Source of the DNA: an uncultured cyanobacterium
GTDB taxonomy: Bacteria > Cyanobacteriota > Cyanobacteriia > Cyanobacteriales > Nostocaceae
DNA length: 64,000 bases
NCBI GenBank assembly: GCA_963706595.1
Contig: OY970166.1
Coordinates: 2,240,001 to 2,304,000 of the forward strand
Direction of reading: 5' to 3'
How positions within the stretch are numbered: position 1 is the stretch's first letter; every line of letters starts with the position of its first letter. The translations under genes and the position numbers were made by a program. Shown in pieces: positions 2,900-32,079 of the stretch. A model generated the notes under the pieces. The model did no database searches. It saw only the letters and a list, made by a program, of their open reading frames with translations, and had not been told where the DNA came from.

Positions 2900-3010
2900 G
2901 AATACAATCCAAACATCATATTTCTTAATAAAAAGAATACCTCCCCGGTCATATTTTTGAGCAAGCAAGAACAAAAACCGGGGAATTTTTCTTTGTGTTT
3001 TTTACTCAGC

Positions 3011-3177
3011 GTGTACACACAAGTTGGAAAACCTTTGATTTGAGTAGGGAGCGTTACGGACGTTAGTCCATAACGCACCGAAAATTGAGGATGGTGCGTT
3101 GTGCTACGCGACAAGACACCCTACAACAAAGGATTTCGAGTAAATTTAATTTAATCATTTGTGTATACACCGTAGCC
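3011..3177. repeat. Dispersed palindromic repeat (MITE/REP-like), copy 1
   Basis: Near-identical core (GCGTTA.GGACG.TAGTCC.TAACGCACCGAAAAT.GAGGATGGTGCGTTG.GCTACGCGACAA) also at 41469-41605. Confidence 0.75.
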
Positions 3178-4591
3178 CTTTGGGACAAGGGGAGACGGCT
3201 ACGCGGTAGCGTATCGGAGGTTATAGCTATGCCTGTCAGGGCTTTACGAGTGCTGCTGAAGTCTAATGACTACGTATAGGGCATTGATTGAGTATTATTT
3301 AGACACATGAAGTTGATCAGCACTTCAGTTAAAAGTCAAAAGCACGGCTCCATAACATTGGGGTTAATTTCTTCCACAAGTTAGAAGAGCATTTGTTATG
3401 CTTGAATGGCAAAGCGAAATCTTGTTCACCAAGCAGAATTGGCTAAATGTCTTAAGGATTAAATATCACAGAATCACAACATTATCTTTAAGCTTAAAGT
3501 ATTATATTTAACAATCTTATTACTGAAAGCCCATCTGCAAGTAGGTTCCAAACCGATGATCAGACTTTTCTATGTTCCAACTTCTCACTGCTAATATCTT
3601 CCAGCGTTGCCGGGGTGATGGCTATTATTGTGCCTGTATCATCTAGAGATTCGCCTTAAGTAGGCTAATATCTGTAATTCTGACTGTCAAATTTCTGCTG
3701 AATTGATTAAAATATCGATGTATACAATAAGAACAGTTTGTCAACTTTCATAGGGTTGAAATTTCAGCAGTGCGCTAATGTGTGAATAAGACCAATCAGT
3801 AAAAATCTCAATTGTTGGCCTCATGGCTGATTCCGCCATCGCCTCAACTCCTTAGTTCAGGCATTTGGCATAATTAAGGTTAACTGTCTTGAGACAAGCA
3901 TCACCGTTCTTGCTGTCTTTACGCTGTGAGAAACTCCACGCAAGTCTTAAGATTGAGCCATTTATGAAGGAAATGTAAAAATGGGTGCATTAATATTTCT
4001 CGCTTAAGTTAACATTAACAAAACTGTTCCTCAGTAATTAATGTTGCACATCATACCTAAAAGTATGTAGTAGCGGGTGTATTTTCCTTTGAATGTCAAG
4101 ATAATGCCACTAGGATGCCAAAAAAATTTGAGAAAAATTTAAGGGCATGACTACCGTTTTCAATATCTTTTTGTTATTGGTGGCTTTACTTTGCACAATG
4201 GCATCATGATTAATACACAAAAAGAGTGCAATTTTTGTGAAACAGGCTACAATCGGAAAAGTCTTTATCAGAGAATATGCCAACGGTCATATTTTGTCTA
4301 TGTGGAGTGGTAGATTTTTGAGATCAAGACAAGCCTTTGTTCAGACGAATTTAGTTAAAAGTTGTATGTCATAGCAACACATGATGATTTCTAACTAAAA
4401 TGAGCAAGTCAGCAGTTACTGCGACTTTTCACATACCGTCAAAAAATCCTCTATGAAGAGGAGCAAACTTCCGAAAAGATTTCCGGGAAATCAGCCTAAA
4501 ACCCGATTTTCGGTAGTTAACTAGCTCGTTTAAAAAGAGCAGTAAACACATCTTGAGTAATTGATTCTGCAAGGAGCATGAGGAACGCGGC

Positions 4592-5767
4592 ATGAACCAG
4601 GCTAACAACGTACTCGAAAGCATTTATCAGCCTGACCTAGAAATAATAAATCAGCCTGAGCTCGAGTTAGAACTCTTAGTCGAAGAAGAAGAAGAAGAAG
4701 AGGACTTGCTGATTAACGATGATGGCGAAGATGAGTTTTTAGAGCCTCAGTCTGATGAGGACGACACAAAGTCTGGAAAAGCCGCTAAATCACGTCGTCG
4801 GACACAAAGCAAGAAAAAGCACTACACCGAAGACTCGATTCGCCTTTATCTGCAAGAAATTGGTCGGATTCGCCTATTGCGGGCAGACGAAGAAATTGAA
4901 TTGGCGCGAAAAATCGCTGATTTGTTGGAATTAGAAAGGGTGCGGGATAGACTGCAAGAACAGTTAGAACGCGAACCTGAATATCGGGAATGGGCGGAAG
5001 CTGTACAAATCCCATTACCAGCATTTCGTTATCGCCTGCATGTTGGTCGCAGGGCAAAAGATAAAATGGTGCAATCGAACCTGCGTCTTGTGGTGTCAAT
5101 TGCTAAGAAATACATGAATCGTGGTTTGTCTTTCCAAGACTTAATTCAGGAAGGTAGTCTCGGTTTGATTCGCGCTGCAGAAAAGTTTGACCACGAAAAA
5201 GGTTATAAGTTTTCTACTTATGCTACATGGTGGATTCGTCAAGCAATTACCCGTGCCATAGCTGATCAATCTCGTACTATCCGCCTACCGGTTCACCTCT
5301 ACGAAACCATTTCGCGGATCAAGAAAACTACCAAATTGCTATCCCAAGAAATGGGACGCAAACCTACTGAAGAAGAAATCGCGACTCGCATGGAAATGAC
5401 CATCGAGAAATTGCGGTTTATCGCTAAATCTGCCCAGTTACCTATCTCACTAGAAACGCCCATCGGTAAAGAAGAAGATTCTCGATTGGGCGATTTTATT
5501 GAGTCAGATGGTGAAACTCCCGAAGATCAGGTTTCCAAAAATCTGCTGCGCGAAGACCTGGAAAAAGTCCTCGATAGCCTCAGTCCTCGTGAACGCGATG
5601 TCCTCCGACTGCGCTATGGTTTGGATGACGGGCGCATGAAGACTCTGGAGGAAATTGGCCAAATTTTTAATGTTACCCGCGAACGAATTCGTCAAATTGA
5701 GGCCAAAGCACTCCGCAAGTTACGTCACCCGAATCGCAACAGTGTTCTTAAGGAATATATTCGGTAG
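4592..5767 (+). CDS. sigA: Principal RNA polymerase sigma factor SigA (RpoD)
   Basis: [55 protein letters not shown], region 4 [20 protein letters not shown]; acidic N-terminus. Confidence 0.97.
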
Positions 5768-25417: not shown

Positions 25418-26947
25418 ATGCTTGCTAGAGTTTGGAGTGCATCTATTGTGGGCATCGATGCCGTGAAAGTCGGTGTTGAAGTCGATATTTCAGGGGGTTT
25501 ACCGGGAATTGTGGTGTTGGGTCTTCCAGATTCGGCGGTGCAAGAATCTAAGGAGAGGGTAAAAGCGACGCTGAAAAATGCTGGTTTTGCTTTCCCGATG
25601 CGGAAAATTGTGATTAACCTGACTCCGGCTGATTTACGCAAGGAAGGGCCATGTTTCGATTTACCCATTAGTGTGGGGATTTTGGCGGCTTCTGAGCAAG
25701 TTAGTGCTGATTTGTTGGGAGATTATCTTTTTTTGGGTGAAGTCTCCTTAGATGGTAGTTTACGTCCTGTGGCTGGGGTTTTACCCATTGCGGCTACAGC
25801 CCAAAAAATGGGAATTGCAGGTTTAGTTGTTCCAGTAGATAATGCTCAAGAAGCTTCGGTAGTTGCAGGATTGGCGGTTTACGGTTGCAAAAATATCGCT
25901 GAGGTGGTGGATTTGTTGAATAATCCAGGGCGTTACAAACCTGTACAGCCAGATAATTCACAACCGTTACCCAAAACGGCTTATCCTGGCGCAGACTTAA
26001 AAGATGTCAAAGGTCAGGCTCATGCTCGTCGGGCTTTGGAAATTGCAGCTGCTGGAGGTCATAATCTTATATTCGTCGGACCTCCTGGGAGTGGGAAAAC
26101 GATGTTAGCTCGACGTTTACCGGGTATTTTACCACCTTTGGAGTTTGCGGAATCTTTAGAAGTGACTCGGATTCACTCGGTGGCTGGGTTGTTGAAAAAT
26201 CGCGGTTCCTTAGTACGCGATCGCCCTTTTCGCAGTCCTCACCATTCAGCATCGGGACCTTCTCTGGTTGGTGGTGGTAGTTTTCCCCGTCCTGGGGAGA
26301 TATCTTTATCACATTTTGGGATCTTATTTCTGGATGAGTTGACAGAGTTTAAGCGCGATGTTTTAGAATTTCTCCGCCAACCTTTAGAAGATGGTTATGT
26401 GACAATTTCCCGCACTAGACAATCGGTGATGTTTCCGGCGCAATTTACTTTAGTCGCCAGTACCAATCCCTGTCCTTGCGGTTATTATGGCGATACTATT
26501 CAACAGTGTACCTGTTCACCCAGACAACGGGAAAATTATTGGGCAAAGCTTTCGGGACCTTTGATGGATCGGATTGATTTACAAGTTGCAGTGAATCGTT
26601 TAAAGCCAGAGGAAATTACCCAACAACCTACGGGAGAAGCTTCAACTTCAGTTTTAGAGAGAGTTACAAAAGCACGCGATCGCGCCGTTAAACGTTTTCA
26701 AGGAGAACCAAATCTGCGTTGCAATGCTCAAATGCAAAGCCATCATCTTCAGAAATGGTGCAAGTTAGATGATACTAGCCGCAGTTTATTGGAAGCAGCA
26801 ATTAGAAAATTAGGCTTATCTGCAAGGGCGAGCGATCGCATTCTCAAAGTCGGGCGGACTATTGCAGATTTAGCTGGGGAAGAGGAATTAAAAGCCAATC
26901 ATATAGCTGAAGCGATTCAATACCGCACAATCGATAGGATGCAATAA
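25418..26947 (+). CDS. comM: YifB/ComM family Mg-chelatase-like AAA+ ATPase
   Basis: INLTPADLRKEG, GPPGSGKT, PHHSAS, LFLDELTEF, NPCPCG, SGPLMDRID. Confidence 0.92.
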   Translation: MLARVWSASIVGIDAVKVGVEVDISGGLPGIVVLGLPDSAVQESKERVKATLKNAGFAFPMRKIVINLTPADLRKEGPCFDLPISVGILAASEQVSADLLGDYLFLGEVSLDGSLRPVAGVLPIAATAQKMGIAGLVVPVDNAQEASVVAGLAVYGCKNIAEVVDLLNNPGRYKPVQPDNSQPLPKTAYPGADLKDVKGQAHARRALEIAAAGGHNLIFVGPPGSGKTMLARRLPGILPPLEFAESLEVTRIHSVAGLLKNRGSLVRDRPFRSPHHSASGPSLVGGGSFPRPGEISLSHFGILFLDELTEFKRDVLEFLRQPLEDGYVTISRTRQSVMFPAQFTLVASTNPCPCGYYGDTIQQCTCSPRQRENYWAKLSGPLMDRIDLQVAVNRLKPEEITQQPTGEASTSVLERVTKARDRAVKRFQGEPNLRCNAQMQSHHLQKWCKLDDTSRSLLEAAIRKLGLSARASDRILKVGRTIADLAGEEELKANHIAEAIQYRTIDRMQ

Positions 26948-27127
26948 GGCATAATGTAAAAATAATTAGTACAAAATTTATTTTGAATAGCTTGCTGAAT
27001 CTAACTTTCATATAAAAATTGTTCAGGTTATTTTTACACAAATCCTAATCAAATAACATTTTTCGGATAGGTTAGTTGGTAATTGCAGTTGCATCCAATA
27101 GTTAATCCTTGGTTAAGTCAACTCAAT

Positions 27128-29215
27128 TTATCCCCCGCCAGAAGGATCGCTGCCACATACAGGGCAGATATACATCCATTTTCCTTTATGTTCTGGATGA
27201 TCTGAGTGTCTATGGAAACAGTTAGGAAACTTAAGGATACGGTGATTTTTACCGTAGCAATGTTGGACAACCCAGAATTGACCACATTTAGGACATGAAC
27301 AATATAGACCTGTCCCTGTTCCAGACCTGGAACTACCTGATATTACGCGACTAGTCAATTCTTGTTGACTTATTTTATTTGGTATCCAACTAGTCTGAGT
27401 GTCTTGTTCCAAATTAAGTTTATGTCCGCAAAATAGACAGTCGGTAGAAAAGCTACCGTGGTACTGAAACATTAATCTAATTAATCTATTAAGCTGCCTA
27501 TTCACCCCTACACCTGGCTTAAGTGCAATTGCTCCATATTTGTGGCTAATAAATCTATCTTCACTTCTTCCAAGGGTGTCATCAAACTTTTCCTTTAGTA
27601 CCCTGTTGATAGGGACTTCACCCCAAAAATCAATTTGTTGATCTGTATGCAAAATAAAACTAGCTTTTCCTCTTAAAGAATACAAGTATTTATCTCTAGC
27701 AACATCTATAACATCAGAAATAAACTGTTTACTCCCTTGGTGTTTATAGTTACGATATTTAGCATCAAAATAGTAAGTATTTGTGTCACTATTGGTTGAT
27801 ATATCTATCCTAATATCAGGAATTTTTAATTGATTGGAATTAGTATATTGCTTTGGTTGATACCATAGTGAAACATTGAATTGACTACCATCATCAAAAG
27901 CACCTTGAAGACGAAATACATTATTTGTAGGTATTTTAATCTCTCCTTTCTCAATTCGCATACTCTCAAAAAGAGTAGTTTCATTTAAGGGAGGACGCAT
28001 ATTCAAATTTGTAACAAAAGCATTATAGAGCCTGACAAAGCACCAAATTTCGTATAGTTCCCATGTAGAACGAACTTGACCTTGATAGATAGCTTTAAAG
28101 AGCTTAATAACTGGTTGAATCTTAGGAAAAATACTGCTTTCGCAATTCATGTACTCTTCAAAAATAGGAGCATAAGCGGGAGAGCTAATTAATCGCTGAG
28201 ATGGTAAAGGTAGTTGAGTGGGAGTTAGTACATTCTGTAAAAATGGAGTATGACGGACGTAAGTTGCCCATTCTGCACACTCTTGAAGTTGAGCTACTAT
28301 TTTCGATATATTTTTCCTTTCCTCTTCCCTTTGCTGATTAAATTTTTTAACTCGCTCTTTAGCTCTAGCCAAAAAGCTTAACATTGCTGGTTCATTGGCA
28401 TAATTAAGAGGTGAAAAGAAGCTATCATCAATTCCTAAGTCTTCAAGTGAATGAAAAATCCCATTAACTAAATCCTTTAAATAAACATCTAGTACATAAC
28501 ATAAAAATTCATTTTCAGAGCATTGAGTAGATTCAACTTTGGTTAAAGCTAGAATTCTTTGTTTAGAAGCATCTATCTTGGCTTTGATTATAACTTGAGG
28601 CGAATTGATTAATTTTCGTGTATCAACTAAACCTAACTCTCTAGAAAAACTTTTCAGGGGACGTTTTTCTATTATTGCCCAGTTACTTTGAACAACTGAT
28701 GCTAGTTTTAATATGGAAGTTGCTGTTAATAATAAACCTCTGCTGTCAGAGTATCCCATTCCAATCATTGCAGTTTCTACGTCTTCCCCTACAGAAACTT
28801 GTAATTGATTGGTAACACAACTAGATGTAGAAAGTCCTAGTAATCCTATTTCAGTAATTAATTGTTCTAGTTCCTGCTCTGTTAAGCCAGCTGGTTTCAC
28901 TAACAAAAAAGCTTCAGGACTACTATCTATGGGTTCACCGGAAGCATTCAAGAGTATAGCGGTTATTTGTCCTGTTCTTGACGCTACTCCTTTACTGATT
29001 TCTCGCTCGTGTTTCGTTCTTTGAGGGAGTTCCCACCTATTGCTGCCTATTTTTAGGAGTGGAATTATAGAATCACCCTTTAAACCAACACTTCCATTCC
29101 ATAAACCCTCTATCTCAACATACCAACGTCCACTGTACTGGCGAGTGTATTGTGCATCATCTTCCCAAGGTAGCTCACCTCTGGAGTCAGCAAAATTAAT
29201 TTTTGGATAAGCCAT
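27128..29215 (-). CDS. McrC-like nuclease (DUF2357-like region + PD-(D/E)xK) with C-terminal Cys-rich/Zn-ribbon region
   Basis: WELYEIWCF, IPDIRI...YYFDAKYR nuclease motifs; ENEFL motif; C-terminal CLFC, CSCPKC, CPVC; starts 11 nt after the McrB-like gene. Confidence 0.8.
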   Translation of the reverse strand: MAYPKINFADSRGELPWEDDAQYTRQYSGRWYVEIEGLWNGSVGLKGDSIIPLLKIGSNRWELPQRTKHEREISKGVASRTGQITAILLNASGEPIDSSPEAFLLVKPAGLTEQELEQLITEIGLLGLSTSSCVTNQLQVSVGEDVETAMIGMGYSDSRGLLLTATSILKLASVVQSNWAIIEKRPLKSFSRELGLVDTRKLINSPQVIIKAKIDASKQRILALTKVESTQCSENEFLCYVLDVYLKDLVNGIFHSLEDLGIDDSFFSPLNYANEPAMLSFLARAKERVKKFNQQREEERKNISKIVAQLQECAEWATYVRHTPFLQNVLTPTQLPLPSQRLISSPAYAPIFEEYMNCESSIFPKIQPVIKLFKAIYQGQVRSTWELYEIWCFVRLYNAFVTNLNMRPPLNETTLFESMRIEKGEIKIPTNNVFRLQGAFDDGSQFNVSLWYQPKQYTNSNQLKIPDIRIDISTNSDTNTYYFDAKYRNYKHQGSKQFISDVIDVARDKYLYSLRGKASFILHTDQQIDFWGEVPINRVLKEKFDDTLGRSEDRFISHKYGAIALKPGVGVNRQLNRLIRLMFQYHGSFSTDCLFCGHKLNLEQDTQTSWIPNKISQQELTSRVISGSSRSGTGTGLYCSCPKCGQFWVVQHCYGKNHRILKFPNCFHRHSDHPEHKGKWMYICPVCGSDPSGGG

Positions 29216-29226
29216 AAACGTTCACT

Positions 29227-31473
29227 TTATCCCCAGTAGCTAACATTGCGCCGTCTAGTATCTTGGATTTGATTTCGTAAATTTTCAATTACATCTGGAG
29301 TACCGAACTGAGAATAATTATTTTCAATTTCCTCTAGCCATTCAAGGCAAATATTTTCTCGCTCTTCATCCTTGAAAAAAGAAATTCTAGGCAGAAGTTT
29401 CGTAAAGAGAAAGTATCCTATACATTCTTTGGCTGTTAATCCAATAATTTTAGAAGCAGTATAGAAAACTTTATAATCTCTTTTTACTCGATATCCTAAA
29501 GGTATTCCGCACTGAGATAAGTAACGAGAGTTCCAATTTGAGATAGTATCCCAACCAGAAATTCTGTTGGGAGTTCCGAGAAGTTGATTATCTAATTCTT
29601 TAAATAAAGATGTTATAAATGTTCCTGCAATTGGATTGCTAGAAAGGGGCGAATTTGTATTTTCAGTAAAATCAGGCAAAGGATAGGTAATGATGAAGGA
29701 TTTATCTATTACTTTTGGACTGATGTTATAAGTGGTTTCGTCTGAATTTAGAGTTCCAATCAAAACTAAGTTTTTGGGAATTAAAAATTCCGCAGGATAA
29801 TTACTTAAAATATGTTGAAGTTTAGCCAGTCTGTTAATTTGTTCAGATGTTTTTGATTTTTGGGATTGTAACAGCTTAATTTCTTGCCTAATTTGTATTT
29901 CTATACTAGGTGAGTAGAGAATTAGCTTTTGCGTTGCTTGACCTTTGGAATATTCTAAAGATGAGAGTAAGTCAGCAGCATAGTTTTCAATTCGAGCTAA
30001 ATTGAGTTCATCCAAACAGACTAAAAAAACTTGTTCAAATTTTTCGTGAGCTTGTTGTAATGCAGTTAAAAAACTGGAGGGATGAAAGCTATCATTAATT
30101 GGATTGTAAAATCCTAACAAATCGCTTGAGTCAGTCCAAGCTGGTCGAACAGGAATAATTTTGCTATTACCATTTAAAATTTTAGCAGATTTTTCTACCA
30201 GGCTTGTTTTACCAATTCCAACCGAGCCATTTAATAAAATAATTTGTCCAGTATATAAAGAAGTTAATACAGATAATAAATAGCTAGTTTTAATATAGTT
30301 GGCTAATAATATACCCCTGGCGTTAACTTCAGCATTCCAGTCTTGATAATTGAGTGAAATTTCTTCCTGCCATCCTTTAATTTTTAATTTTTTATGGTTA
30401 GCTATTTCCTCAGATAATAGTTTTTTGTAATGAACCAAATATTTTATATATATTGGGTCATTTTTACCTCTAACCATACCTAAAAATTCAATCTTACCTC
30501 GAACAACATGATGAAAACGTTTTGTTTGTTCACTGCTTCTAATTTTTAAATATTTGTATTTTTTATCATATCTACTACTATACTCACCTGATGCCTTCTC
30601 AATTCCAAACTTTTGCCAAGCATGAAGCAACGCTTGGATTTGTCGGACAAATTTACGATTTACGTTAGGAAGATGGTTAACTGTTAAACCCGTTACTTCC
30701 TGACGATAGTTTTGAGTTTGCAACCTTACTTTATTCTCATTTACTTCAAAATTATTACTATTAAGTATTTCTCGTAATTCTTCTCCAACAAAAAATCTTC
30801 TTGCAGATCCATTATTAACTACACGTCCTAGTCCTTCTGGAAACTCCTCTAAATTATTAGAAAAAGTGATATCATCAGCATATCTTGTATATGTTGCTTT
30901 ATATTTTTTTGCTAGTTCTAGTAATTGCCTATCCATTTTTGCACATACCATATTTGAGACGATAGGTGAAGTGGGTGCGCCTTGAGGTAACTGATCCTGA
31001 TAGCAGCATATTTGTGCCAGTAGGTTAGCTACTTTATCATTCGCGTTATATGGTTGTGCCATAAACATGGCTCGAACTCTTTCAAAGTTAATTGATGCAA
31101 AAAAGTCTTGAATATCTAAATTTAGAACATATTTCTTTTTAGTATGAGCTTTGGCATTAGTTACAATACTTTTTTTTGCTGTAAAACCATGTACGCATGG
31201 CTTAGGTTGATAAACAGGTTGTAGTATTTCTTTGCTGAGTTTTTTTTGTATATCTAGTAAAGGAAAATATCCTTCTCCTTCATATATTTCATAACGTTCC
31301 GAGCTACTTATTGGTGTTCTTATTGTTCTTACACCACCAGATTTCTTAGGAATTTTAAATTCCCTGTATATTTCATCTACTTGTTCAAGTAGCTCAATTA
31401 AACTATGATAATCAATGCCTAGTTTTTCTGCTACAAGTTCTGGAGATAAGCGATATAAGTCGTTTAAATTCAT
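29227..31473 (-). CDS. Retron-type reverse transcriptase fused to McrB-like AAA+ NTPase
   Basis: RT (about aa 1-355): IPKKSGGVR, NAKAH, LDIQDFF, LPQGAPTSP, YTRYADD, RQEVTGLTVN. AAA+: GSVGIGKT, VRPAWTDSSDLLGFYN, LDELNLA, GTLNSDE. Confidence 0.88.
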   Translation of the reverse strand: MNLNDLYRLSPELVAEKLGIDYHSLIELLEQVDEIYREFKIPKKSGGVRTIRTPISSSERYEIYEGEGYFPLLDIQKKLSKEILQPVYQPKPCVHGFTAKKSIVTNAKAHTKKKYVLNLDIQDFFASINFERVRAMFMAQPYNANDKVANLLAQICCYQDQLPQGAPTSPIVSNMVCAKMDRQLLELAKKYKATYTRYADDITFSNNLEEFPEGLGRVVNNGSARRFFVGEELREILNSNNFEVNENKVRLQTQNYRQEVTGLTVNHLPNVNRKFVRQIQALLHAWQKFGIEKASGEYSSRYDKKYKYLKIRSSEQTKRFHHVVRGKIEFLGMVRGKNDPIYIKYLVHYKKLLSEEIANHKKLKIKGWQEEISLNYQDWNAEVNARGILLANYIKTSYLLSVLTSLYTGQIILLNGSVGIGKTSLVEKSAKILNGNSKIIPVRPAWTDSSDLLGFYNPINDSFHPSSFLTALQQAHEKFEQVFLVCLDELNLARIENYAADLLSSLEYSKGQATQKLILYSPSIEIQIRQEIKLLQSQKSKTSEQINRLAKLQHILSNYPAEFLIPKNLVLIGTLNSDETTYNISPKVIDKSFIITYPLPDFTENTNSPLSSNPIAGTFITSLFKELDNQLLGTPNRISGWDTISNWNSRYLSQCGIPLGYRVKRDYKVFYTASKIIGLTAKECIGYFLFTKLLPRISFFKDEERENICLEWLEEIENNYSQFGTPDVIENLRNQIQDTRRRNVSYWG

Positions 31474-31488
31474 TTAATGTATTCAACA

Positions 31489-31623
31489 AGAAAGGCATAA
31501 GGTTTCTCTAATCGAACATAAAAGCCACCCAAAAGGGCAAGGGTTTAATTCCCCTACCAAAATCAGAGATTTGGTAGCTTCCAACTCGTGGGTATTGAAG
31601 CCTTTAACATCTTATACCCTTCT
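31489..31623 (-). ncRNA. Candidate retron-like ncRNA module 2
   Basis: 13-bp closing stem AGAAGGGUAUAAG/CUUAUGCCUUUCU (2 G-U pairs valid only on the minus strand) enclosing hairpins at 31577-31601 and 31554-31577. Confidence 0.5.
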
Positions 31624-31660
31624 GCCTTCTTCACCAGAGTTTTCATCCTTCTAAATTGTG

Positions 31661-31770
31661 GAGGTATATACAGGTCTATTCCTAAGTGTCTTTTTTTCTT
31701 TTTTATGAAACCTTGCGGTAACTCGTTGCAGGATCAACAACGAAAATCAATAGCTACCTATATATACCTC
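31661..31770 (-). ncRNA. Candidate retron msr-msd ncRNA module 1
   Basis: 15-bp a1/a2-like stem GAGGUAUAUAUAGGU/ACCUGUAUAUACCUC followed by unpaired AG, then hairpins UUCGUUGU..GCAACGAG and ACC-GCAA-GGU; starts just after a promoter and upstream of the retron-type RT. Confidence 0.62.
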
Positions 31771-31775
31771 TCTAT

Positions 31776-31805
31776 ACAGTATTTCTCTTTTGCATATTTT
31801 GTCAA
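31776..31805 (-). promoter_or_regulatory. Sigma70-type promoter of the ncRNA-RT operon
   Basis: Minus strand TTGACA (31805-31800), 18 nt, TACTGT (31781-31776); predicted TSS about 31770 coincides with the stem start. Confidence 0.65.
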
Positions 31806-32079
31806 GACTGTTACACAAATTGAACTAGAATGGAAAATATGATAGGTGGAATTAATGAGCTTATGCAAGCCTAAATTGACAATATTGAGAAGTTATAGCG
31901 ATTTCCAAAGTCGTCAGTATTGAGACAAAATTAACCACAGAGCAGATAAATCTATACCTAAGCTAAACTGAGAAATTCTGTCTCACGAATAGGGCAAAAA
32001 TACCTTTGGGAAGATGTAGCCAACTCATAAACCAGTATCAAATATAGCAGGAGGGCAAAATTTCCTAAATCAGGAGACT

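Follow-up and report, generated by a model that had tools for sequence, protein, structure and literature searches.

Here, we report a candidate retron with an McrBC-type effector in a 64,000-nucleotide (nt) stretch of DNA from an uncultured cyanobacterium of the Nostocaceae (GenBank assembly GCA_963706595.1, contig OY970166.1, positions 2,240,001 to 2,304,000), which is called the window throughout. Read on the minus strand, the locus carries a sigma-70-type promoter (31776 to 31805), a candidate noncoding RNA (ncRNA; 31659 to 31771), a 187-nt spacer (31474 to 31660), a gene for a 748-amino-acid (aa) fusion of a retron reverse transcriptase (RT) with an McrB-like AAA+ part (29227 to 31473), and a gene for a 695-aa McrC-like nuclease (27128 to 29215). 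Positions 31771 to 31659 are most likely the msr-msd ncRNA gene of a retron, a kind of element with which bacteria counter phages, and the whole 4.7-kb cassette would then consist of promoter, ncRNA, RT-McrB-like AAA+ fusion and McrC-like PD-(D/E)xK nuclease.

Results

The candidate RNA, delimited by the full-length match of a covariance model (R1, described below) and by the stability of its fold, is about 110 nt long and lies downstream of a TTGACA promoter. Its ends form a 15-bp terminal stem, in which the 15-nt 5′ arm (a2, 31756 to 31770) pairs with the 15-nt 3′ arm (a1, 31661 to 31675), as given by both RNAfold and R1. RNAs were compared among four orthologous loci, namely, the window, L002, L031 and L032 (the Nostoc sp. 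HK-01 plasmid), with the Merismopedia orthologue (P0003/P0122) left out. One pair of the terminal stem, U31760-G31671, would be an A-C mismatch on the opposite strand and is C-G in all three other orthologues; the strand is therefore settled as the sense strand of the RT gene.

Next to the terminal stem lies an AG bulge (A31755 and G31754, 31754 to 31755; AA in the three other orthologues), followed by an inner 5-bp helix (helix 2) between CUAUU (31749 to 31753) and AAUAG (31676 to 31680), which was found by RNAfold, R1 and covariation. The family consensus of this helix is GUAUU/AAUAC, and the C-G pair of the window is thus a double change. Directly 3′ of the 5′ strand of helix 2 stands an unpaired, conserved guanosine, G31748. 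The msr hairpin that follows (hairpin 1, 31722 to 31744; 7 to 8 bp, loop UGAUCCU) is the most conserved element and is presumed to be the hairpin recognized by the RT. Hairpin 2 (31710 to 31719, ACC-GCAA-GGU) was predicted by RNAfold with a 3-bp stem and a GNRA loop, which is GCAA or GUAA across the four orthologues; a counterpart of its helix was not resolved in the wider ncRNA family. The remaining linker (31681 to 31709) is short, A-rich and without a helix in the fold, and is the putative msd template. Among the four orthologues, whose proteins are 79 to 88% identical, the msr is nearly invariant and the linker is hypervariable, with both substitutions and indels.

The minimum free energy of the element was −34.6 kcal/mol, compared with −17.7 ± 2.9 kcal/mol for 200 dinucleotide shuffles (z = −5.81), none of which was as stable. 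The RNAfold structure was identical to the layout drawn in an earlier first-pass annotation of this DNA, which had claimed a promoter, an a1/a2 stem, a bulge, an inner helix, two hairpins and a linker; every one of these parts is present on the minus strand where it had been placed. Two annotated or predicted reading frames overlap the element. An 84-aa plus-strand open reading frame (ORF; window 31588 to 31842) runs antisense to the ncRNA and is probably spurious, and in the Nostoc HK-01 record (L032:3640-3879), a coding sequence annotated as “hypothetical protein” lies across the promoter and the initial 25 nt of the ncRNA match.

The promoter has a −35 hexamer TTGACA (31805 to 31800), unchanged in all four orthologues, and one of two possible −10 hexamers: TACTGT (31781 to 31776), which fits TAnnnT and lies 18 nt from TTGACA, or AATACT (31783 to 31778), which was favored by the promoter scan with a 16-nt spacer. 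Five nt (31775 to 31771) separate TACTGT from the stem, and transcription would start at about 31771.

Relatives of the RNA were found through hairpin 1. When the upstream region was compared with the first loci by BLAST, a 29-nt core of this hairpin was 88 to 100% identical upstream of RTs that are only 46 to 57% identical. Written as an IUPAC pattern and searched against 185,579 species (one genome each), the core was present at 58 loci, nearly all cyanobacterial. At 51 of these, the largest ORF starting within 600 nt downstream encoded an RT homologue (44 to 57% identity in BLASTP local alignments); the other seven comprised one locus cut by a contig end, four with short ORFs only, and two in noncyanobacterial metagenome-assembled genomes (MAGs) without an RT, which are probably chance matches. 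The 5′ flank of the core was complementary to a stretch 60 to 260 nt downstream in each locus, with about 10 distinct arm sequences that differed wholly between subfamilies while complementarity was kept. Scored without an alignment, the best 5′/3′ stem of each locus had a median of 29, compared with 18.5 ± 2.7 for shuffled 3′ parts; the window arms scored 34 together and at most 25 when crossed with those of other loci.

Covariance model R1 rests on an alignment of 39 related loci from cyanobacteria, with the RT-McrB clade left out, and contains three helices (11 bp of a1/a2, 5 bp of the inner helix and 7 bp of hairpin 1). Against the window it gave one significant match, 31771 to 31659 on the minus strand, at full length (47.5 bits; E value, 7.9e-9; standard pairs at 23 of 23 positions), the next having an E value of 5.9. 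The window element was also the single match in the 5.57-Mb genome. The three other orthologues matched at 42.7 to 48.2 bits, and 69 matches were obtained over 80 sources.

Covariation was counted on the 67 distinct rows of a 69-row alignment fitted to the R1 structure. Paired cells made up 96.1%, compared with 30.6 to 53.9% when the 3′ partners were slid by 1 to 3 columns. Double-sided changes occurred in 17 of the 23 pairs (11/11 in a1/a2, 3/5 in the inner helix and 3/7 in hairpin 1), and none of 500 shuffles reached any of the five covariation measures. A plain MAFFT alignment, which is independent of this fitting, likewise gave double changes in 3 of the 7 pairs of hairpin 1. RNAalifold on a plain MAFFT alignment of 51 sequences recovered hairpin 1 only; the 3′ end of the window clade was misaligned there, and for that reason the long-range helices were tested on the model-based alignment. 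An RNAduplex-type search for a1/a2 over-extended the stems and was dropped. The first-pass annotation had read the stretch as a promoter-anchored, msr-msd-like RNA with an a1/a2 stem on the sense strand of an adjoining RT-McrB gene, and had named covariation among homologues beforehand as one check; the R1 match, the 17 covarying pairs, the invariant −35 hexamer and the protein matches given below bear this out.

Upstream of an Escherichia coli RT/TIR plasmid gene, a Bacillus Ec67-family gene (10.5 bits; E value, 2.4) and eight more distant RT loci of the cyanobacterial phylum, R1 matches were not significant, barring loci L096 and L020 (E value for L020, 0.0017). L096 is positions 855 to 1001 of CP000876.1 (Herpetosiphon aurantiacus pHAU01, a Chloroflexota plasmid), where R1 matched just upstream of a 584-aa RT fusion with 30.1 bits, an E value of 6.2e-5 and three broken pairs; the ncRNA family may therefore extend past the cyanobacteria. 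Tandem pairs of the ncRNA lie upstream of one RT gene in L013 (2642 to 2785 and 2937 to 3111, minus strand) and in L066 (2894 to 3050 and 3293 to 3495, minus strand), each copy having its own complementary a1/a2 arms.

The fusion protein consists of a retron RT (about residues 1 to 365) and an McrB-like AAA+ part (about residues 377 to 748), as assigned from Pfam, PADLOC and motifs. Pfam placed RVT_1 at residues 93 to 265 and AAA_5 at residues 412 to 510. PADLOC matched the RT part with RT-Protease_XI (E value, 1.6e-124), RT-TIR_XII (4e-117) and RT-Toprim_I-C (1e-116), profiles that stop at about residue 364, and its candidate-defense model PDC-M26A matched residues 270 to 547; the NCBIfam models Retron_TIR and retron_Ec67_fus (E value, 2.1e-87) matched the RT part only. 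The retron RT motifs (NAKAH at 106, YADD at 198 and VTG at 260), Walker A (GSVGIGKT at 416) and Walker B (LVCLDE at 484) are kept in all four orthologues. By profile, the RT places with clade 8 (top PADLOC types XI, XII and I-C). In a quick tree of 54 cyanobacterial RT domains, the four RT-McrB rows formed their own long branch (SH-aLRT, 100).

Among solved structures, the AAA half matched E. coli McrB 6hz4 (E value, 2.9e-5). This and the profile match to McrB are both weak, the NCBIfam model scoring 15.8 bits against a cutoff of 637. The McrB signature region reads LNSDE (NxD or NxxE) where it is aligned to McrB MNTADR, the E. coli form being NxxD. The N-terminal 365 residues are a retron RT where McrB has its modified-DNA-binding domain.

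The nuclease, assigned by Pfam (PDDEXK_7) and PADLOC (PDC-M26B), has a PD-(D/E)xK core between an N-terminal region and a Cys-rich region at the C terminus, and its motif PD...DAK at residues 466 to 486 is invariant. An AlphaFold2 model (mean predicted local distance difference test score, 80.8) had three McrC chains as its top Foldseek matches in the PDB (6ut7_G, 6hz4_M and 6ut6_G; E values, 2.7e-5 to 4.8e-4). An orthologue is named “DUF2357 domain-containing” in its source record.

Pairs without an RT occur in other cyanobacteria (L003, L004 and L015, in genomes G368, G294 and G392, respectively), where an McrB-like AAA+ protein of about 586 to 644 aa adjoins an McrC-like nuclease. These match PDC-M26A/B and are 47 to 51% (AAA+) and 33 to 42% (nuclease) identical to the window effectors, and their McrB-like proteins carry a different N-terminal region of about 230 aa. 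BLASTP homology to them begins at residue 377 of the fusion. The junction thus lies at about residue 377, and, most simply read, an McrB-like protein has had its N-terminal domain exchanged for a retron RT. An RT remnant in the RT-less McrB-like homologues, suggested by HMMER matches that begin at query residue 226 or 290, was considered and rejected, given the BLASTP start at 377 and no RT match in PADLOC.

The cassette is rare and mobile. G168, from another genus, shares window positions 27143 to 31807 at 91% nucleotide identity, a tract that begins at the end of the nuclease gene and reaches 2 nt past the −35 hexamer, with unrelated flanks. Genomes G318 and G376, of the same genus as the window, keep the flanking ComM-like and BrkB/purB genes, have no match to 26948 to 31972, and have no protein match to RT-McrB. 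Promoter and RNA therefore travel with both protein genes as one unit. A full-length protein match was present in only two (G000 and G168) of 401 genomes of the phylum. Of 5.8 billion clusters at 90% identity, four span the protein from end to end (the window and entries named Dolichospermum, Merismopedia and Nostoc plasmid), and other matches cover one half; among the best 150 HMMER matches in 1.84 billion 50%-identity representatives, one covers both halves. In Nostoc sp. HK-01 the cassette lies on a plasmid and adjoins an integrase gene. A scan with a single protein gave no confirmed relative in genome contigs and one locus, L031, in metagenome contigs. At the left edge of the cassette, between the ComM-like stop and the nuclease stop, there is a 38-nt imperfect inverted repeat (71% complementary; window 26944 to 27049).

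The spacer between the ncRNA and the RT start holds two terminator-like hairpins (31558 to 31525) and may be an attenuator that limits read-through into the RT gene. L002 and L031 keep the spacer with about 87% conservation, and most of it is missing in L032, where the gap is 37 to 41 nt. A repeat or miniature inverted-repeat transposable element was ruled out for 31474 to 31660, which is single copy in the genome. Metatranscriptomes (six runs, 4 to 6% of sampled words each) yielded, from four of the runs, five low-depth contigs, 90 to 95% alike, over 31301 to 31624 only. These span the RT start and spacer, with none over 31661 to 31770, and since such contigs cannot show starts they are neutral on an ncRNA transcript. 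At most loci of the main family (e.g., L009, L049 and L058), in the RT-alone subfamily, a run of 6 to 9 T directly follows a1, so that the a1/a2 stem resembles an intrinsic terminator; the window clade is without this T run.

Two positions compete as the base that would prime reverse transcription. At the column of G31748 (alignment column 26), 66 of 69 rows have G, as do 64 of the 67 distinct rows. Opposite this base, immediately 5′ of the AAUAG strand of helix 2, stands G31681 (column 218), which is G in 66 of 69 rows. According to Khan et al. (2024, PMC10849725), G is the most frequent base at the branch point as well as at the first position copied. Given this preference and the column conservation, we take the terminal stem and helix 2 together as a single a1/a2 stem with an interruption; G31748 is then the preferred candidate primer and, if it primes, G31681 would be the first templated base.

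The first-pass annotation had instead assigned the priming 2′-OH to the bulged G31754, in which case copying would run from G31676 and the AAUAG strand of helix 2 would be the first template. In the window strain, G31754 is the sole unpaired G inside the paired ends (RNAfold); it stands in a UAG context, partly like the “G often preceded by TTA” described by Khan et al. (PMC10849725), its first copied base would also be G, and in the canonical retron picture the branching G sits at the very end of a2. Against these stands its variation. The site is A in all three other orthologues, whose RT motifs are intact, and column 20 is G in only 30 of the 67 distinct rows and mostly A otherwise. Moreover, 17 of the 67 have no G at all in the loop between the two helices, including five RT-Toprim members of about 610 aa (the L041 group), L016/L037 and the RT-protease member. 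Priming by G31754 is thus unlikely, and G31748 is preferred here as the better candidate.

The sequence that would be available for copying is short. The interval from hairpin 1 to the 3′ strand of helix 2 is 32, 41, 42 and 42 nt in the RT-McrB members (42 nt in the window), the four shortest of 66 measurable members; the others range from 61 to 131 nt, and the overall median is 73 nt. Hairpin 2, with its 3 bp, is the only structure predicted for the window interval (−3.6 kcal/mol; z = −1.1), and the putative cDNA is essentially unstructured (−1 kcal/mol; z = 0.3). The A fraction of the putative template is 0.48 in the window versus 0.25 to 0.29 in the three other orthologues. Of the unusually short, A-rich template without a long hairpin that had been claimed at first pass, the shortness and the missing hairpin therefore hold as a trait of the clade, since the interval is short in all four RT-McrB members, and the A-richness is a trait of the strain.

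Another reading is a retron-derived RNA that has lost its template function: an RT-binding scaffold, or a regulator of RT-McrBC acting through hairpin 1 and the paired ends, with little or no cDNA made. No other members of the family have so short an interval, neither structure nor sequence is conserved in it, and the usual msd hairpin is missing. The YADD, NAxxH and VTG motifs are nevertheless intact in all four orthologues, as would be expected of a functional polymerase; the two conserved G residues that face each other where helix 2 ends on its inner side are kept; and the linker is never fully deleted, being 10 nt shorter in the Nostoc plasmid orthologue, L032, with at least 19 nt remaining. 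We consider loss of template function improbable.

That there is no functional RNA gene here, and that the element is a chance or structural inverted repeat (e.g., a terminator of divergent BrkB-side transcription, a mobile-element end or the plain 5′ leader of the RT mRNA), would agree with the frequency of such repeats in the window, the place of the element at the edge of a transferable cassette and its lack of an Rfam match, but is highly improbable given a sequence and structure kept, with compensatory changes, ahead of RT genes in many genera of cyanobacteria, the single genome-wide R1 match, the strand-specific U-G pair and the lack of a copy of the repeat at the other end of the cassette.

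Discussion

Several observations weigh against a retron at this locus. The long stable msd stem-loop that is typical of retrons (as described by Mestre 2020, PMC7736814) was looked for by folding the window interval and was not found; the RNA might therefore go uncopied or be copied for a few bases. The a1/a2 repeat is 1 of 22 inverted pairs of at least 14 nt within 150 nt in the 64-kb window, and the promoter scan gave 1 site in 900 nt where 3.2 were expected from shuffles; with such repeats common and promoter-like sites not enriched, the case beyond chance rests on homology. An Rfam search matched no family, its best hit over the element being a snoRNA model with 22.4 bits against a threshold of 80. 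The alignment used to count covariation was fitted to the model's own structure and many of its rows are close kin, which inflates the counts of cells though not the types of pairs. Within the RT-McrB clade, one stem pair alone varies (U-G in the window and C-G in the others), and at column 26, the site of the candidate primer, 3 of 69 rows have U. The TM-scores of the nuclease model against McrC are low (0.17 to 0.30), as is to be expected from a nuclease protein twice the size of McrC.

The ncRNA family itself serves more than one effector. It precedes at least five architectures: RT alone with unknown partners, RT-Toprim, RT-protease, RT with a WYL neighbor, and RT-McrB. RT-only genes are followed by proteins of about 290 to 300 aa without a Pfam family. 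RT-Toprim (type I-C) genes with the family ncRNA occur in L016, L041, L054, L078, L081 and L089, with full-length PADLOC matches (E value, 1e-172 for L016, L041 and relatives). In L068, a record labeled as a Clostridiales MAG, the ncRNA (2984 to 3126, plus strand; 55.9 bits; E value, 6.5e-10) has arms wholly unlike the consensus yet complementary and stands before an RT-protease ORF (3233 to 4846) that matches type XI at full length (PADLOC E value, 8e-183). On plasmid pAQ5 of Picosynechococcus sp. PCC 7002 (L033, NC_010479.1, 19345 to 23419), an RT relative with the family ncRNA is followed by a 301-aa protein of no family and a 688-aa AAA_33/WYL protein; as PCC 7002 is a model strain, this locus could be a tractable system for the ncRNA family.

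In its general plan, the element resembles the canonical msr-msd described by Mestre (2020, PMC7736814): terminal repeats that pair, small msr hairpins and a conserved G by the paired ends, directly upstream of the RT gene on the same strand, with an RT that carries NAxxH and VTG. It differs in that the window is without the long msd stem-loop, its paired ends are split by a bulge into 15 and 5 bp, and its putative template is an unstructured stretch of about 30 nt that varies between orthologues.

Retron-Eco2 (Ec67, type I-C) has an RT of the same broad group, an effector fused to the RT C terminus and an upstream ncRNA with a1/a2; there, a G near the 5′ end, G15, is given as the priming base (PMC12916289). 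Unlike type I-C, the window fusion carries an McrB-like AAA+ NTPase in place of Toprim and is followed by a separate gene for an McrC-like nuclease, and the interval after hairpin 1 is 32 to 42 nt in the RT-McrB clade versus 77 to 81 nt in RT-Toprim members. The comparison of RNAs with this group covered the Bacillus Ec67-family gene, upstream of which R1 was not significant, with the E. coli Ec67 ncRNA left out.

Types XI and XII gave the best profile scores for the RT part and share the theme of one RT-ncRNA chassis with different effectors; the pAQ5 relative in PCC 7002 has a WYL-containing neighbor, as TXI_C2like does. The window cassette, in contrast to these types, has no protease, TIR, WYL or DnaB_C. 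Type XI was listed without a recognizable ncRNA by Mestre (2020, PMC7736814); some type XI ncRNAs have since been validated, as reported by Khan (2024, PMC10849725), and Toro (2026, PMC13712802) presents candidate ncRNAs for two protease-less type XI-like lineages. The main text of the latter mentions neither McrB nor cyanobacteria, and has “AAA” once (AAA_21, type I-B2) and “ATPase” once.

Likeness to McrBC type IV restriction lies in the AAA+ Walker A and B motifs of a domain matching E. coli McrB, in a PD-(D/E)xK partner with an McrC-like fold and in the order of McrB before McrC; the difference is that a retron RT, together with an RNA of its own, stands in place of the N-terminal domain with which McrB reads DNA. 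The main text of the McrBC census of Bell et al. (PMC11090510) contains neither “reverse transcriptase” nor “retron.” No description of an RT-McrB retron was found in the literature searched, which did not reach subscription journals and bioRxiv supplements, and the search found no paper on PDC-M26. The clade 8 RT fusions listed by Mestre (2020, PMC7736814) are Toprim, TIR and protease only. The system described here is very probably a clade-8-like retron with an McrBC-type effector and a minimal msd, whose RT-McrB fusion falls outside that list.

We propose the following working of the cassette. The RNA would be transcribed from the TTGACA promoter, starting at about 31771, and its ends would pair through a1/a2 and the inner 5-bp helix. 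The RT domain would dock on the invariant hairpin 1 and prime from a guanosine 2′-OH at the inner limit of the paired ends, for which G31748 is the best candidate. Copying of the short unstructured linker from G31681 would yield a T-rich product of about 20 to 45 nt, a hairpin-less multicopy single-stranded DNA (msDNA). The module of RT and msDNA, sitting where McrB carries its DNA-reading domain, would act as a sensor; until disturbed by an infecting phage, it would restrain both the McrB-like motor and the McrC-like nuclease.

A further step is offered tentatively, as a possibility that we rate below even chances: the short (about 20 to 45 nt), hairpin-less and freely varying single-stranded DNA may itself be the specificity or sensor element of the McrBC-like translocase-nuclease. 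The cassette would then be a retron-programmed, type IV-restriction-like machine with a minimal natural msd.

Retrons are classified by the effector they have recruited, and an McrB-like motor with an McrC-like nuclease would add a new effector class and would connect retrons with the type IV restriction machinery that is most widespread. The ncRNA family, spread across at least five architectures, provides a ready covariance model for annotating such loci, and it includes a canonical type XI gene, a type once reported without a recognizable ncRNA (as listed by Mestre 2020, PMC7736814). A shrunken, hairpin-less template tests how little msd suffices for a retron, which bears on the engineering of compact retron donors. 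If single-stranded DNA of this kind does serve as the sensor, the msd hairpin would be dispensable for retron function.

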